Below are positions 2,268-43,281 of a stretch of 64,000 bases of DNA, piece after piece; the first letter of the stretch is position 1, and the number at the start of each line of letters is the position of its first letter. The stretch lies in NCBI RefSeq assembly GCF_036507355.1, contig NZ_AP027877.1. The stretch is one strand, 5' to 3'. The position numbers and the translations under genes were made by a program. Under the pieces are notes generated by a model. It worked only from the letters and a program-made list of their open reading frames with translations, had not been told where the DNA came from and did not search any database. The DNA is from Escherichia coli. Its GTDB lineage: Bacteria; Pseudomonadota; Gammaproteobacteria; Enterobacterales; Enterobacteriaceae.

Positions 2268-3049
2268 TGCTGGAAATACTCTATCAGGATGAATGGCTGG
2301 TTGCGGTAAATAAACCCTCCGGCTGGCTGGTTCACCGCAGCTGGCTGGATCGCGACGAGAAAGTAGTGGTCATGCAAACCGTGCGTGACCAGATAGGCCA
2401 GCATGTTTTTACTGCTCATCGTCTGGACCGACCAACTTCTGGTGTGTTGTTGATGGGATTATCCAGCGAGGCCGGACGGCTGCTGGCACAACAGTTTGAA
2501 CAGCACCAAATCCAGAAATGTTACCATGCGATTGTGCGCGGCTGGTTGATGGAAGAAGCGGTGCTGGATTATCCACTGGTGGAAGAACTGGACAAAATCG
2601 CTGATAAATTTGCCCGCGAAGATAAAGGCCCGCAGCCAGCAGTGACGCATTATCGCGGTCTGGCGACCGTAGAAATGCCGGTAGCGACCGGACGTTACCC
2701 GACCACGCGCTACGGCCTGGTGGAACTGGAGCCGAAAACCGGACGCAAACATCAGCTTCGCCGACATCTTGCCCATTTGCGTCATCCGATTATTGGCGAT
2801 AGCAAACATGGCGATTTACGCCAGAATCGCAGCGGTGCTGAGCATTTTGGTCTTCAGCGGTTAATGCTGCATGCCAGTCAGTTGTCATTGACGCATCCTT
2901 TCACTGGCGAGCCGCTGACTATTCACGCGGGCCTGGACGACACCTGGATGCAGGCGTTATCACAATTTGGCTGGCGCGGTCTGCTTCCTGAAAATGAAAG
3001 GGTTGAGTTCAGTGCGCCATCGGGTCAGGATGGAGAGATAAGTTCCTAA
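2267..3049 (+). CDS. truC: tRNA pseudouridine(65) synthase TruC
   Basis: 260-aa ORF with RluA-family motifs (HRLDRPTSG). Confidence 0.9.
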   Translation: MLEILYQDEWLVAVNKPSGWLVHRSWLDRDEKVVVMQTVRDQIGQHVFTAHRLDRPTSGVLLMGLSSEAGRLLAQQFEQHQIQKCYHAIVRGWLMEEAVLDYPLVEELDKIADKFAREDKGPQPAVTHYRGLATVEMPVATGRYPTTRYGLVELEPKTGRKHQLRRHLAHLRHPIIGDSKHGDLRQNRSGAEHFGLQRLMLHASQLSLTHPFTGEPLTIHAGLDDTWMQALSQFGWRGLLPENERVEFSAPSGQDGEISS

Positions 3050-3066
3050 TCTAGGGAGAAAACGGT

Positions 3067-3516
3067 ATGGCGGAAATTGGTATTTTTGTCGGCACCATGT
3101 ACGGAAATTCGCTGTTAGTGGCGGAAGAAGCAGAAGCAATTCTGACCGCACAGGGCCACAAAGCAACGGTATTTGAAGATCCTGAATTAAGCGACTGGCT
3201 GCCCTATCAGGATAAGTATGTTCTGGTGGTTACGTCCACGACCGGGCAGGGCGACCTTCCTGATAGCATTGTGCCGCTCTTTCAGGGAATCAAAGATAGT
3301 CTGGGCTTCCAGCCGAATCTGCGTTATGGCGTGATTGCGCTCGGCGACAGCAGTTATGTAAATTTCTGCAATGGCGGCAAACAGTTCGATGCCTTGTTGC
3401 AGGAACAGAGCGCTCAGCGGGTTGGCGAAATGCTGTTGATTGACGCCAGTGAGAACCCGGAACCGGAAACGGAATCAAATCCGTGGGTCGAACAGTGGGG
3501 CACGCTGTTGTCCTGA
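3067..3516 (+). CDS. yqcA: Flavodoxin YqcA
   Basis: 149-aa ORF, flavodoxin-like ([10 protein letters not shown] motif). Confidence 0.85.
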
Positions 3517-3570
3517 TATGTTCAGCGAGCGGTAAATGTCGTTTTAGCGGTGCTGAATCGAATCTTTTTA

Positions 3571-3624
3571 GGCAAATGCCAGTAAAAACTGCTTCATAGC
3601 GCGGATTTTTACTGGCGTTTGCCT
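3571..3624 (+). terminator. Long inverted repeat (ggcaaatgccagtaaaaa ... tttttactggcgtttgcc) downstream of yqcA
   Basis: Arms are reverse complements with one mismatch. Confidence 0.45.
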
Positions 3625-3950
3625 GGAGTCAAGCGATCCATTTCATACTCTTCTTTATTTCTTCGTTTTAACCCTTCCTTTCTTGTTCTTGTTTTCATTT
3701 CCGTGAAGTGGATTCCACCGTCCAGGGCTAATGCCAAAATCGGGCCTCATTGAACGCATTAATGTTGTGTTGTTGCACGGTGAGCCGCTATGGCGCGCTT
3801 TTTATACTGCTATTGCCAGATATAAACACGCGCCGTATTCGGCGAACGACCTATAAAAACGGCAAAAAACACCCTACGTCACCTCTGATTTCCTGGCGAT
3901 GTCGCAGTCCAGAGTGAGCGTGGCTAACGCGAATTTTCAGGAGTGCAACA

Positions 3951-18096: not shown

Positions 18097-19410
<1,314 letters not shown>

Positions 19411-19430
19411 GACTGACTTAACGTCTTAAT

Positions 19431-19461
19431 AAAAAACCCGCTTCTTGAAGCGGGTTTTTTT
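19431..19461 (+). terminator. Rho-independent terminator after eno
   Basis: aaaaaacccgcttcttgaagcgggttttttt. Confidence 0.8.
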
Positions 19462-19465
19462 ATCT

Positions 19466-19828
19466 TCACATTTTGAGTTCAGTAAGCAGAGCGATAACAT
19501 TAATAAATGTTATTCCCACCAGGATAAGTATCCGAACAATTTTTCTGCTATTCCTTACATTGCTGACAAAATCATTATGAGAAATATTGGATGAATATTT
19601 TCGTTGATGGACTTTATAATCCCAAAGAAGATCATTTGCCTCAGGTATTGGGTTAATCAGACTGTAGATGCAAAAGTATACAAACGTATCTAAAGCAAGC
19701 AGTGATGTTATCAGTTGAAATAATTCATCGCCCTGGAAGGCTTTATTAAGCCAAATCATTCCAGCAGCACCGAATAAGCCAAATACAAATTTACTTAATC
19801 GCGGATGATTCGCTAAAATCTTACTCAT
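19466..19828 (-). CDS. Hypothetical small membrane protein (about 3 hydrophobic segments), AT-rich, no recognisable family
   Basis: 120-aa ORF in track; GC visibly below neighbours; function not inferable. Confidence 0.45.
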   Translation of the reverse strand: MSKILANHPRLSKFVFGLFGAAGMIWLNKAFQGDELFQLITSLLALDTFVYFCIYSLINPIPEANDLLWDYKVHQRKYSSNISHNDFVSNVRNSRKIVRILILVGITFINVIALLTELKM

Positions 19829-19863
19829 ATTTTCTTACCTTCCCTGTAATCTGTTTTTAAGTC

Positions 19864-20766
19864 TTACCATCTTCCTGACGCGCCGCCACCGCCGGATGAA
19901 CCGCCGCCACCGCTGAAATTGTCATTGTCGAAAGAGGATGAAGAGGAAGAAGACGATGACGAATGCCAGGAGGCCGAGTTGCTTCTTTCGTAGCGTGACG
20001 GTCGGTTTGCACTACGCATTGAATCACGCACCTTTCTGCCGAAAGGTGTGAAAGCGATAGCTACGACCAGGAATGGAGTGGCGAAACATAATAATGTGGC
20101 AAGAATTCCCCAGCTCCCGCTATATCCAGCGATGGGAAGTACAAAGGCCAGTATTATGGCAGCAAAGCAAATCACTCCCAGCGTTTTGATATATCCTCTG
20201 GCAGAAATAAACGTCAGTACTATCGCCCAGACTAACAGAGCCCACCAACCGCTAAAGGGTAAAGGATGATCGGGCGATGTATTATTGACTAAATCATTTC
20301 CTGATAGTCGGGTTTCAATATCACCAATACCTTGTTGCAAGCCGACAGCAAGGTCGCCCTTTTTAAACGCTGGAATAATACTGTTGCGTATAATTTGCCC
20401 GGACTGCGCATCCGTCAGAATACCCTCAAGTCCGTAGCCAATTTCAATATGTACTGTATGATCTTGCTAGGCAACTACCAGTAAAATACCGTCATCAAGA
20501 TTCTTATGACCGGGCTGCCAACGCTCGAATACCCGCGTTGCGTACTGCTCGATGGTTTCGTCGCCTGTTGTATCAACCACTAACACGACCAACTGTGCGT
20601 GTTTTTTTTGTGTCAGGGCTTTAATCTGGTTGGTCAGGGTGTTTACTTCGCTGTTTGTTAATGTGCCGGTTAAGTCATTCACATACTTGGGTGATTCAGG
20701 TACTGGAATTTGTGTGGCAAACACAGATGAACAGAAGAAAGCCGTAAGGAAGATAAAATTTCGCAT
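19864..20766 (-). pseudogene. ygcG: TPM-domain protein YgcG homolog, interrupted by one in-frame TAG at 20467-20469
   Basis: Track ORFs 20467-20796 and 19864-20340 share a frame; translation through the stop continues the TPM domain (…LLVVA*QDHTVHIEIGYGLEG…); signal peptide start MRNFIF, Gly/Ser-rich C-tail. Confidence 0.7.
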
Positions 20767-20779
20767 AGAACTTCCCCGC

Positions 20780-21400
20780 TTAATGAGCATTAGCATTCTG
20801 GCTAAAATCTATTGTTGGGGCTTTACTTACTGCGGCGACATCATCCGGCAAATAATTTTTCTTTGGTGTGTAATCCATGACCTTTGCGGTTAATACAGCG
20901 GGGAATTTGCGGATAGTGACATTATATTGTTCAATGGCTTTAATATATCTTCCTCGCGCAACGGCAATTCTATTCTCACTTCCTTCGAGCTGTACCATTA
21001 AGTTTTGATAGAGCTCTTGAGCCTTTAACTCAGGGTAACGCTCACTAATTATCGTTAACTGACCGAGAGTGCGAGTCACCTGCGCCTGGGCCTGTTGCCA
21101 GGCTTGTAATTTTTGTGCATCTCCGGGAGCTTGCTGAAGATCGCTGCTGGCGCGATTAGCCTGGCTACGAGCCAATGTTACGGCTTCCAAAACGTCTTTT
21201 TCATGGTTGGAATAACCTTTAATACTGGCGACAAGATTAGGAATAAGATCGGCGCGACGTTGATATTGATTTAATACCTCAGACCAGGAGGCGTTAACCT
21301 GCTCATCATAGGTTTGAATATCGTTATATCCACAGCCTGATAAATTGAAAATAAATATAATTAAGATGAATATCCTGAGCATGTTTAAATCCTTTTTCAT
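20780..21400 (-). CDS. LemA family protein, probable lipoprotein (alternative start 21382, MLRIF…LSGC lipobox)
   Basis: 206-aa ORF; stop 14 bp upstream of the ygcG start, so the two look co-transcribed; low GC. Confidence 0.7.
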   Translation of the reverse strand: MKKDLNMLRIFILIIFIFNLSGCGYNDIQTYDEQVNASWSEVLNQYQRRADLIPNLVASIKGYSNHEKDVLEAVTLARSQANRASSDLQQAPGDAQKLQAWQQAQAQVTRTLGQLTIISERYPELKAQELYQNLMVQLEGSENRIAVARGRYIKAIEQYNVTIRKFPAVLTAKVMDYTPKKNYLPDDVAAVSKAPTIDFSQNANAH

Positions 21401-21554
21401 TAATTCCTTAAAACATAATACGCCGCTTCATTTTATTCTTTATGATCTAATGCACTTTTTGCCTTAAACCTGCCTGTAACAGAATGTTAATAAGACATGA
21501 TTGTTGCGGCAGGATCTGCAATAATTAACAATTATCCACTTCACAGAGAATGCT

Positions 21555-22226
21555 ATGCAGTACCCGATTAACGAGATGTTCCAGACCCTGCAAGGTGAGG
21601 GTTACTTTACCGGCGTCCCCGCCATTTTTATTCGTTTACAGGGATGCCCGGTTGGCTGTGCCTGGTGCGACACCAAACACACCTGGGAAAAGCTTGAGGA
21701 TCGGGAAGTCTCCCTTTTCAGCATTCTGGCGAAGACCAAAGAGAGTGATAAGTGGGGGGCGGCGAGCAGTGAAGACTTGTTGGCTGTCATTAGTCGCCAG
21801 GGATACACCGCGCGGCATGTGGTGATTACGGGTGGTGAGCCTTGCATTCATGATTTGCTACCACTGACTGATCTGCTCGAAAAGAACGGTTTTAGCTGCC
21901 AGATCGAGACCAGTGGTACTCATGAGGTACGCTGCACACCGAATACCTGGGTTACCGTATCGCCAAAGCTGAACATGCGCGGCGGCTATGAAGTGTTGTC
22001 ACAGGCACTGGAGCGAGCCAACGAAATCAAGCATCCAGTGGGGCGCGTACGCGATATTGAAGCACTGGATGAACTATTGGCAACGCTGACCGATGATAAA
22101 CCGCGAGTCATTGCACTGCAGCCGATTAGCCAAAAGGATGATGCCACACGATTGTGCATTGAAACCTGCATTGCGCGTAATTGGCGTTTGTCGATGCAAA
22201 CACATAAATATCTAAATATTGCCTGA
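21555..22226 (+). CDS. queE: 7-carboxy-7-deazaguanine synthase QueE
   Basis: 223-aa radical-SAM ORF (CxxxCxxC-like cluster). Confidence 0.9.
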   Translation: MQYPINEMFQTLQGEGYFTGVPAIFIRLQGCPVGCAWCDTKHTWEKLEDREVSLFSILAKTKESDKWGAASSEDLLAVISRQGYTARHVVITGGEPCIHDLLPLTDLLEKNGFSCQIETSGTHEVRCTPNTWVTVSPKLNMRGGYEVLSQALERANEIKHPVGRVRDIEALDELLATLTDDKPRVIALQPISQKDDATRLCIETCIARNWRLSMQTHKYLNIA

Positions 22227-22565
22227 TTAAACATTTATAAGCGTTATAAATGGGTGGAACCTGTAAAGACTTCTACTCATTTATATTCTTTGTCGCCTCT
22301 GAAAACTCCTCCATTTTACCCATCCAGGGCTAATCATTAGCATTCTCTACAAATTCTGTGGTGTTAATTTTTTGTTGGAGTGAAAATTATTGCGGTAAAG
22401 TTTGGTAGATTTTAGTTTGTATAGAATTATTTTAAATATTTGCCTTTTTAATCAATGGGTTAAGTGCTCTTTAACATAATGGATGTGTTGTTTGTGTGAT
22501 ACTGTAAAGTTGGTAGATTGTGACTGGCTTAAAAAATCATTAATTAATAATAGGTTATGTTTAGA

Positions 22566-22777
22566 GAGTTCCCCGCGCCAGCGGGGATAAACCGGAGAGA
22601 GTCCAGTATCAATCCCGCGATCCGCAGAGTTCCCCGCGCCAGCGGGGATAAACCGCCGTTGCGGATCTTGAGTAGTGCCACGTCACCGAGTTCCCCGCGC
22701 CAGCGGGGATAAACCGGGTACAAAAGAGGCCCCATTCTGGCAGGGCTCGAGTTCCCCGCGCCAGCGGGGATAAACCA
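22566..22777 (+). CRISPR. Type I-E CRISPR array: 4 repeats of 29 bp (GAGTTCCCCGCGCCAGCGGGGATAAACCG) and 3 spacers of 32 bp, AT-rich leader upstream
   Basis: Repeats at 22566, 22627, 22688 and 22749 (61-bp period); last repeat ends in A; degenerate repeat remnant near 22867-22888. Confidence 0.95.
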
Positions 22778-23244
22778 CCATATAACCCGTTATCTCTTTC
22801 TCAAGTTTTTATATTAGCAGTACTTGTAATAAGCAACATATCCACGTAACACCTCATGTTCAAAATAGTTCCCCATGCCAGATAAGTTCACAATTATCGA
22901 TACAAAAAATTAAATTTAATCAAAGTGTTATTTGTATAATTCTTAAGCCGTTAAGAAATTTTAATCTATTATTTTTTTAATATTAATTAATGCCTGTTAA
23001 TTTTTTCTTTAGTATAACAGTGTATTTTTTAAGCTTGTTATTCATTGATTAAGTAATAAATCTGGAAATTTGTCTTTGTTTTGAGGCTAATGAGTGGTTT
23101 TACATAACCGCCTCTATACGCTGTTGATGAATAGTTCTTATGAATAAAGATATCCAGTTCATACTTTAAGTGAAAATTGATAAAGTGCGATTCGTATTGT
23201 CTTTTATTCTAAAGACATCGAGTGTAGTTAATATTCCTTGTAAA

Positions 23245-23368
23245 AACAGGGATAAACCGAACTAGTTAAAGTTTTTATTATGTTCCCTGCATCAGCGGGG
23301 ATAAACCGGACTTGTTATCATTTTTTAAGTTGTCGAACTTATGTTCCCCGCGCCAGCGGGGATAACCA
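23245..23368 (+). CRISPR. Degenerate, vestigial CRISPR array (2-3 mutated repeats, one 32-bp spacer)
   Basis: Partial repeat ending ggataaaccg at 23259, mutated repeats at 23280-23308 and 23341-23368 flanking a 32-bp spacer. Confidence 0.7.
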
Positions 23369-38761: not shown

Positions 38762-39265
38762 TTATTGATAGTGTTTTATGTTCAGATAATGCCCGATGAC
38801 TTTGTCATGCAGCTCCACCGATTTTGAGAACGACAGCGACTTCCGTCCCAGCCGTGCCAGGTGCTGCCTCAGATTCAGGTTATGCCGCTCAATTCGCTGC
38901 GTATATCGCTTGCTGATTACGTGCAGCTTTCCCTTCAGGCGGGATTCATACAGCGGCCAGCCATCCGTCATCCATATCACCACGTCAAAGGGTGACAGCA
39001 GGCTCATAAGACGCCCCAGCGTCGCCATCGTGCGTTCACCGAATACGTGCGCAACAACCGTCTTCCGGAGCCTGTCATACGCGTAAAACAGCCAGCGCTG
39101 GCGCGATTTAGCCCCGACATAGCCCCACTGTTCGTCCATTTCCGCGCAGACGATGACGTCACTGCCCGGCTGTATGCGCGAGGTTACCGACTGCGGCCTG
39201 AGTTTTTTAAGTGACGTAAAATCGTGTTGAGGCCAACGCCCATAATGCGGGCTGTTGCCCGGCAT
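38762..39265 (-). CDS. insB: IS1 InsB (expressed as InsAB' by a -1 frameshift)
   Basis: 167-aa ORF overlapping insA in the -1 frame. Confidence 0.9.
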
Positions 39266-39459
39266 CCAACGCCATTCATGGCCATATCAATGATTTTCTG
39301 GTGCGTACCGGGTTGAGAAGCGGTGTAAGTGAACTGCAGTTGCCATGTTTTACGGCAGTGAGAGCAGAGATAGCGCTGATGTCCGGCGGTGCTTTTGCCG
39401 TTACGCACCACCCCGTCAGTAGCTGAACAGGAGGGACAGCTGATAGAAACAGAAGCCAC
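39184..39459 (-). CDS. insA: IS1 InsA
   Basis: 91-aa [26 protein letters not shown]…. Confidence 0.9.
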
Positions 39460-41451
39460 TGGAGCACCTCAAAAACACCATCATACACTAAATCAGTAAG
39501 TTGGCAGCATCACCCGGGCTGGCTGATTATTTTCGTCAATTAGGGATTTCTGACAAGGAACAGGCGGCTCAATTTTTCGCCTGGTTGTTGTGCTGGCACG
39601 ATATTGGAAAATTTGCCCGCTCATTTCAGCAACTTTACCTGCACCCACAACTCAAGGTTCCGGAAGGCGCAAGAAAGAATTACGAAAAGATCTCTCATTC
39701 AACGCTGGGCTACTGGTTGTGGCATCATTATTTAAGTGAATGCGAAGAATTGCTTCCTGCCTCTTCACTCTCTACTCGCAAACTTAAACGTGTAATAGCG
39801 ATGTGGATGCCCATGACTACCGGGCATCATGGTCGGCCCCCTGACCGTATTGATGAACTGGATAATTTTCTGCCTGAAGACAAAGTTGCCGCGCGAGATT
39901 TTCTCCTTGAAATCAAGGCACTGTGTCCGCTCATAGAGATTCCCACATTCTGGGATAATGACGAGGGAGTTGAACTTTTAAAACAACTTTCCTGGTATAT
40001 CTCTGCAACAGTCGTACTTGCAGACTGGACGGGTTCGTCAACGCGATTTTTTCCACGCGTCGCACACCCAATGGATATTAAAGATTACTGGCAGAAAACT
40101 TTAGTTCAGGCTCAAAACGCCTTAACCGTCTTTCCTCCAAAAGCAGAAACCGCACCTTTCACCGGAATTAATACGCTGTTTCCTTTTATTGAGCACCCGA
40201 CACCATTACAGCAAAAGGTGCTGGATCTGGATATCAGCCAGCCAGGGCCACAGTTATTTATTCTGGAAGACGTGACTGGCGCAGGTAAAACAGAAGCGGC
40301 GCTTATCCTGGCGCACAGGTTGATGGCTGCGAGGAAAGCACAGGGTTTGTTTTTTGGCCTGCCAACAATGGCAACGGCCAATGCCATGTACGATCGGCTG
40401 GTCAAAACCTGGCTTGCTTTCTATTCGCCAGAGTCCCGCCCCAGCCTGGTGCTGGCACACAGTGCCCGCACATTAATGGACCGCTTTAATGAATCACTCT
40501 GGTCCGGTGATTTAGTCGGGTCAGAAGAACCGGATGAACAAGCGTTCAGTCAAGGATGTGCAGCCTGGTTTGCCGACAGTAACAAGAAGGCTTTACTGGC
40601 TGAAATTGGCGTCGGCACGCTGGATCAGGCGATGATGGCGGTGATGCCGTTCAAACATAATAATCTGCGGCTTCTGGGGCTGAGTAACAAAATCCTGCTG
40701 GCTGATGAGATCCACGCCTGTGACGCTTACATGTCATGCATTCTTGAAGGGCTGATCGAGCGGCAGGCGCGTGGTGGAAACAGCGTCATTTTGCTTTCTG
40801 CTACGTTATCCCAACAGCAGCGCGACAAACTCGTCGCCGCCTTTGCGCGTGGCACAGAGGGCCAGCAAGAAGCTCCGTTCCTTGAAAAGGATGATTACCC
40901 CTGGCTGACGCATGTCACGAAATCCGATGTGAACTCACACCGGGTAGCGACGCGCAAAGACGTTGAGCGTAGCGTCAGCGTGGGTTGGCTTCATAGTGAA
41001 CAAGAGAGTATTGCGCGTATCGAATCGGCGGTAAGTCAGGGAAAATGCATCGCCTGGATCCGCAATTCTGTCGATGACGCTATTAAGGTTCATCGTCAGC
41101 TGCTTGCCCGCGGCGTCATTCCCGCTTCCAGCCTTTCACTCTTTCATAGCCGCTTTGCTTTTAGCGATCGCCAGCGAATCGAAACGGAAACGCTGGCACG
41201 CTTTGGTAAAAATTGTAATTTAAAAAGATCATCGCAAGTCATTGTTTGTACACAAGTAATTGAGCAAAGTGTGGATATTGACCTGGACGAAATGATCTCC
41301 GACCTTGCCCCCATTGATTTGCTGATCCAGCGAGCGGGGCGATTACAGCGACATATCCGCGATATTAATGGTCAGTTAAAGCGTGACGGAAAAGACGAGC
41401 GTTCCCCTCCTGAATTGCTGATTCTGGCCCCCGTCTGGGACGACGCTCCTG

Positions 41452-41781
41452 GTGACGAATGGTTCGGCAGTGCCATGCGTACGCGCCTTTACAGAGGCCG
41501 CGCTTAAAGTCTCACCAACCGGAAAACAAAACAGCTTTGCCAGCCGTGCCTACGCCTCCTGGGCGCTGGCGGAAAAAGGCACTGTTCAACCGCGTTCTCT
41601 GGCGGCGGCTTTCTATGAACCCATTAATGGTACCCGTCAGTTAGATGTGGCGGTGCAGCGTATTACAACGCTTCGCGAAAACATGAATACGGTCTACGAA
41701 CAGAAGACTGAATGCGCAAGTTTTGACGTGATGAACAAACAGGGAAGCATGAAGGACGTACTGGACTTTATCTGCGCGTAA
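41452..41781 (+). pseudogene. 3' remnant of a cas gene, most plausibly the end of cas7/casC fused out of frame to cas3
   Basis: 109-aa frame ending 10 bp before the cas5 ATG, the position casC occupies in an intact I-E operon; the alternative reading is a frameshifted cas3 tail. Confidence 0.4.
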
Positions 41782-41791
41782 GGGGCGGCTT

Positions 41792-42973
<1,182 letters not shown>

Positions 42974-43069
42974 GTTATGTGTTCTTTAAAAATAAGGAAA
43001 TGTTTGAATTTAGTTGGTAGATTGTTGATGTGGAATAAATTTGTTTAAAAACAGATATGTATGCTTAGT

Positions 43070-43281
43070 GTGTTCCCGGCGCCAGCGGGGATAAACCGAC
43101 GAGGGGCTCGTTATTCGGGAAATTACAAAAGTGTTCCCCGCGCCAGCGGGGATAAACCGGCCCAGGGATTTGTTCAATCCAGCGTGCCGCTGTGTTCCCC
43201 GCATCAGCGGGGATAAACCGGGCGCACTGGATGCGATGATGGATATCACTTAGAATTCCCCGCCCCTGCGGTAGAACTCCC
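43070..43281 (+). CRISPR. Type I-E CRISPR array next to cas2: 3 repeats GTGTTCCC(C/G)GCGCCAGCGGGGATAAACCG plus a degenerate terminal repeat, 3 spacers of 32 bp
   Basis: Repeats at 43070, 43131 and 43192, degenerate repeat at 43253; 61-bp period; AT-rich leader at 42974-43069. Confidence 0.95.

Follow-up and report, generated by a model that had tools for sequence, protein, structure and literature searches.

An amber codon at an ancestral Dcm site very probably inactivates a ygcG-family TPM-domain gene in one Escherichia coli lineage

The stretch of DNA analysed here, which we call the window, comprises 64,000 nucleotides of E. coli contig NZ_AP027877.1, and all positions below refer to it unless another sequence is named. 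Between eno (18112-19410, plus strand) and queE (21555-22226, plus strand), an arrangement that defines the syntenic slot of ygcG, we found a minus-strand gene at 20766..19864 that is preceded by lemA and followed by an ORF of 120 amino acids (Table 1). Since the gap between the lemA stop and the ygcG start measures only 13 nt, the two genes probably belong to the same operon, of which the uncharacterised 120-aa ORF is possibly a third member. This ORF is called in every lemA-ygcG locus and is missing from K-12, and a search of the 19466-19828 minus-strand frame against Pfam and NCBIfam gave no match. Scanning of the interval 19300-21700 yielded three promoter-like sites where 5.2 were expected from shuffled sequences, and in the same interval all terminator-like hits inside the operon were antisense, on the plus strand, while two minus-strand hits at 19371-19417 lay past the 3' end of the operon. 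In K-12, the queE/ygcG intergenic region has been listed among the promoter regions bound by sigma-S (PMC4447067).

Table 1. Coordinates of the ygcG-family gene, its lesion and its neighbours in the window
Feature	Position	Strand	Basis
Premature amber TAG (ancestral TGG, Trp100)	20467..20469	-	sequence and near-identical alleles
Mutated base: ancestral C to T on the plus strand; G to A on the coding strand	20468..20468		allele comparison
CTAGG from the ancestral Dcm site CCAGG (coding strand CCTGG to CCTAG)	20467..20471	+	sequence context, site rule PMC2715241
Whole YgcG-family TPM-domain gene, 300 codons and stop, now very probably a pseudogene	19864..20766	-	translation, alleles, Pfam
Translatable remnant (99 aa) with predicted signal peptide and TPM profile 1-71 of 125; identical to BED21161.1	20467..20766	-	
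Untranslated 3' remnant, frame still open: TPM profile 74-123, hydrophobic membrane segments, Ser/Gly-rich tail	19864..20466	-	
lemA, 200 aa, PF04011; 13 nt between its stop and the start of ygcG	20780..21382	-	
Conserved 120-aa ORF without a family match; starts 35 nt past the ygcG stop	19466..19828	-	

Further along the window, the interval from queE to the FGGY-kinase gene (ygcE) contains two CRISPR arrays (22560-22776 and 23240-23365), the first of them holding one repeat-spacer unit (61 nt) more than a near-identical draft genome, GCA_905398585.1. A type I-E CRISPR-Cas locus at 38762-43222 looks decayed. There an IS1 transposase ORF, 38762..39265(-), adjoins a cas3 ORF that is only 668 aa long and in which the HD domain begins at profile position 47; past it come a 287-aa ORF matching only positions 146-246 of the Cas1 profile and then CRISPR repeats at about 43065-43222, and the Cascade genes appear to be missing.

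On the plus strand the window reads CTA at 20467-20469, that is TAG on the minus strand, and it is here that the ORF 20467..20796(-) terminates. A stretch of 42 codons (20466-20340, 126 nt) separates this TAG from a second ORF in the same frame, 19864..20340(-), and when 19864-20796(-) was translated in a single frame, one internal stop was encountered and after it the terminal TAA only. This bears out the first-pass annotation, which had described a TPM-domain gene split by a single in-frame amber codon. The ATG at 20766, from which a signal-peptide-like leader beginning MRNFIFLTAFFCSSVFA... is read, is likely the true start of the gene, and it is the start picked by gene callers in all related public contigs; counted from this MRNF start, the amber is codon 100 of 300.

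We compared the read-through protein with profile PF04536 (TPM_phosphatase), and residues 29-151 matched profile positions 1-123 of 125 with 131.2 bits against a gathering cut-off of 22.1; the domain is followed by hydrophobic segments and then by a Ser/Gly-rich tail. The 99-aa product that can be translated from the window matched only profile positions 1-71 and the piece downstream of the stop matched 74-123, showing that the domain, as had been claimed, continues past the TAG, which interrupts it at profile position 71 of 125. Solved TPM domains (7tbr_A, 2kw7_A and BA41, 5anp_A) were also homologous to the read-through protein, over residues 18-183 with E values from 5e-18 to 5e-21, and they are intact soluble domains, unlike the window product. 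The intact form of the protein is named 'YgcG family protein' by NCBI; our NCBIfam search returned no match to a YgcG model and only sub-threshold matches to Psb32 (TPM) and MamQ (LemA). The function of the YgcG family is stated to be unknown (PMC10091555), and no gene-focused paper on ygcG was among the literature matches listed.

The first-pass annotation had seen no further lesion in the gene and had proposed comparison with orthologs as the way to identify the ancestral codon, and both points were settled by near-identical alleles. Replacing the stop by Trp gave a 300-aa protein that matches deposited intact proteins end to end, and exact look-up returned three of these from E. coli, HBN7513642.1, HCO5162771.1 and HDW3965380.1, which agree with the window at 299 of 300 positions and differ from it at codon 100, TGG (Trp) as against TAG. 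The loci encoding this intact protein share the lemA-ygcG-orf120 context with the window. In all four that were fetched (L006-L009) codon 100 is TGG, and this change is the sole non-synonymous difference between the window gene and theirs. One of them, from GCA_902845195.1 (L008), departs from the window by 3 nt across 2,901 bp; two of these differences fall in the gene, in codon 52 (ACA/ACG, synonymous) and in codon 100 (TAG/TGG). TGG is likewise present at codon 100 in the allele of strain TK3889, which is 92% identical to the window gene, and Trp100 was invariant in nine aligned YgcG proteins, including that of K-12 at 40% identity. The equivalent residue of the solved TPM domains is Arg (7tbr) or Leu (2kw7), so that conservation of the Trp, as far as these comparisons go, is confined to YgcG proteins. 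The agreement of the near-identical alleles, TK3889 and the YgcG alignment indicates that the ancestral codon is TGG and that the mutation is G to A on the coding strand, equivalent to C to T at position 20468 of the plus strand.

Whether the TAG is carried by living bacteria or arose during sequencing had been left undecided in the first-pass annotation, which offered two readings, a nonsense mutation of recent date and an error of sequencing. Under the latter reading the true codon would be TGG and the gene intact, and a single base substitution is indeed a change that an error could produce. Moreover, a 50-mer centred on the TAG occurred in 0 of 5,426 RefSeq complete E. coli genomes, in 340 of which the exact TGG 50-mer was present; the variant being central, any 28-nt megablast seed must span it. 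On this absence alone the change looked either private or erroneous, until exact-protein look-ups found the allele in other public data. The exact 99-aa truncated product is deposited from E. coli as BED21161.1, the longest contig carrying it measuring 4.64 Mb, and its neighbour BED21162.1 is the window's 206-aa LemA ORF, so that this record probably stems from the window's own genome. In addition, four other datasets supplied at least six contigs that encode the 99-aa product; they comprise an isolate draft (NCBI GCA_905398585.1), two read-set assemblies (Logan ERR3330519 and ERR11525759, Logan contigs being assemblies of reads) and a metagenome (ENA ERZ926208), and in all of these TAG contigs the DNA of the gene is 100% identical to the window, with the proviso that one of the four datasets could share the window's isolate. 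Importantly for the error reading, the draft GCA_905398585.1 carries the TAG while differing from the window elsewhere, by a SNP in lemA (plus strand 21258) and by one 61-nt CRISPR repeat-spacer unit fewer; the missing unit could reflect short-read collapse, and the lemA SNP stands regardless. The site lies outside any homopolymer, the large neighbouring genes are full-length ORFs, and the window gives no sign of error-prone assembly. We therefore regard an error of sequencing or assembly as extremely improbable. Of the two options first offered it is the nonsense mutation that stood, and its occurrence in separately sequenced datasets, one of which differs at other positions, argues strongly that the TAG is a genuine, inherited allele of one E. 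coli lineage, in which this single-base change inactivates YgcG; we hold this joint explanation to be very probable.

The sequence surrounding the mutated base, on which the first-pass annotation did not remark, points to how the allele may have arisen. The ancestral coding strand, GCC TGG CAA, contains CCTGG, corresponding to CCAGG on the plus strand at 20467-20471, where the window has CTAGG; the changed base is thus the inner C of a CCWGG Dcm site, and the change is C to T. At such sites deamination of 5-methylcytosine produces a T:G mismatch in the context CTWGG/CCWGG, which is normally repaired by Vsr (PMC2715241). We counted the single-base changes by which the intact allele could acquire a stop codon and found 116, including 30 G:C to A:T transitions. 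A Dcm-methylated C underlies only two of the 116, both among the 30 transitions, and the observed change is one of these two, although a proportion of 2/30 is only moderately improbable by chance. Since the mutated base is a Dcm-methylated C of a kind so rare among the possible nonsense changes, deamination of 5-methylcytosine at the Dcm site appears to be the most likely origin. The inner C of CCAGG would have been methylated and would have deaminated spontaneously to give CTAGG, escaping very-short-patch repair by Vsr. No dcm gene is contained in the 64-kb window. The classical amber hotspots of lacI, reportedly traced by Coulondre and co-workers in 1978 to deamination of 5-methylcytosine at Dcm sites, involve the same C to T change at the inner C of CCAGG, giving CTAGG and a TAG codon. 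Unlike those hotspots, the window case comes from a natural isolate, and its mechanism is read from sequence context.

Termination at codon 100 would leave as translatable product the 99 residues made up of the predicted signal peptide and the N-terminal ~57% of the TPM domain. Missing from such a product would be the conserved segment IEIGYGLEG, the rest of the helices, the segments that span the membrane and the tail rich in Ser and Gly. We searched the frame beyond the stop for codons at which translation could restart, and found TTG at codon 143, GTG at 198, GTG at 246 and ATG at 250. None of these has a well-spaced Shine-Dalgarno sequence, the TTG having an SD-like AGGG 16 nt upstream, and all lie near the end of the TPM domain, where codon 143 is close to the last matching residue (151), or beyond it, so that reinitiation could not restore a TPM protein. 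Because the conserved segment, the membrane segments and the tail would be lost, and because a credible restart codon is lacking, the change of TGG (Trp100) to TAG by C to T at position 20468 of the plus strand is expected to inactivate the gene, and we consider the truncated ygcG-family gene very likely to be a recent, lineage-specific null allele.

A loss of function would be avoided if the amber were decoded, through a suppressor tRNA, programmed read-through or recoding, or if the two halves worked as a split gene. UAG is read through naturally at a low level in E. coli, and past the TAG the frame has stayed open without change, although a very recent mutation would leave it just as intact. 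A scan of the 64-kb window for tRNA genes, made with a suppressor in mind and covering the window only, found none. Before codon 143 no in-frame start has a usable Shine-Dalgarno spacing, and whatever protein a restart gave would be devoid of the signal peptide and of nearly all of the TPM domain. Moreover, the stop shows no sign of having been selected, its place being taken by TGG/Trp in all relatives, and programmed recoding was rejected on this count (TAG in 0 of 5,426 genomes, the TGG 50-mer in 340, Trp in all aligned relatives). Decoding of the amber or a working split gene is thus very improbable, and inactivation remains our preferred reading. It might extend to the rest of the operon, where the ~600 nt of untranslated mRNA 3' of the stop may lower expression of the 120-aa ORF through polarity. 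Over most of this untranslated part the C/G ratio stays near 1, gene positions 751-850 being its one C-rich stretch, and since this composition gives no clear Rho-utilisation signal, polarity on the 120-aa ORF, probable as it may seem, stays a guess.

We also compared the window with other E. coli sequences at the eno-queE slot (window 19466-21400), where at least three allele types occur, represented by the window, TK3889 and K-12. In K-12 MG1655 the slot is occupied by YgcG (b2778), a TPM domain-containing protein of 290 aa, in the order queE-yqcG-ygcG-eno. Its architecture is that of the window protein, with an N-terminal hydrophobic leader, the TPM domain, hydrophobic segments and a Ser/Gly-rich tail; Trp100 is conserved, and the C-terminal 17 residues, FSGGGGSSGGGGASGRW, are identical. 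Over its whole length, however, the K-12 protein has only 40% amino-acid identity to the window protein, its gene is intact whereas that of the window is truncated, and the K-12 locus has the 46-aa yqcG in place of a full lemA and is without the 120-aa ORF. The name ygcG given in the first-pass annotation is acceptable for the family and the locus, in agreement with the eno-queE slot and with the NCBI name, and does not hold if it is taken to mean the K-12 gene itself. The differences between the window and TK3889 ygcG genes fall mostly in the first ~270 nt, the remainder being nearly identical, and this clustering suggests a recombination breakpoint inside the gene. Among RefSeq complete genomes none was more than about 92% identical to the window ygcG allele over its full length, and the flanking 19.4 kb reached 99.3% identity to E. 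coli chromosomes. The TK3889 gene (NZ_AP045036.1) is recorded by PGAP as a pseudogene 'missing C-terminus' (positions 3035-3706 of the fetched locus, L001), yet it has a stop-free frame of 301 aa (3035-3940), and this call is probably an annotation artefact stemming from truncated reference proteins.

The 3' two-thirds of the window gene is open and shows no amino-acid change relative to intact alleles, and this preservation of the remaining reading frame indicates that the nonsense event is recent. Carriers of the TAG show few or no differences over stretches of up to 5.4 kb, one carrier (L002) being 100% identical over 5.4 kb. Other truncations of ygcG are found in E. coli, with lengths of 208, 209, 218, 234 and 247 aa, and contigs of more than 4.8 Mb carry three of these forms. 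Two truncations of this set (P0006, P0007, P0008, P0010 and P0014) have frameshifted tails that begin just after ...GYSGSW, and a lesion site in the region of the membrane segments may be recurrent. Such a pattern agrees with weak constraint on a dispensable gene.

These truncations could also be taken to mean that loss of YgcG is adaptive and favoured by selection instead of a neutral decay, the more so as the TAG allele persists in several samples and the K-12 locus has been replaced by a divergent allele without lemA. Recurrent truncation is equally well explained by relaxed selection on a dispensable gene, the near-identity of the TAG carriers over the locus would suit a single young clone in which the allele hitch-hiked, and the YgcG family is without a known phenotype (PMC10091555); we consider an adaptive loss unlikely. 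A broader proposal, that ygcG-family genes are recurrent targets of inactivation and that certain niches favour loss of the TPM membrane protein associated with LemA, is a long shot; if it were true, the amber allele would join the independent C-terminal truncations and the whole-allele replacement at the eno-queE slot. Neutral decay is the reading that we retain, and the window gene is an ordinary young pseudogene.

The finding matters little outside correct annotation, where a single entry, a ygcG-family pseudogene interrupted by an internal stop, should take the place of a 99-aa 'hypothetical protein' and an orphan ORF. Amber mutations at Dcm sites nevertheless gain a clean example from nature here, and the choice between TAG and TGG, set by position 20468 of the plus strand, could be used to mark the lineage. 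With this allele, the cases in which ygcG appears dispensable in E. coli grow by one.
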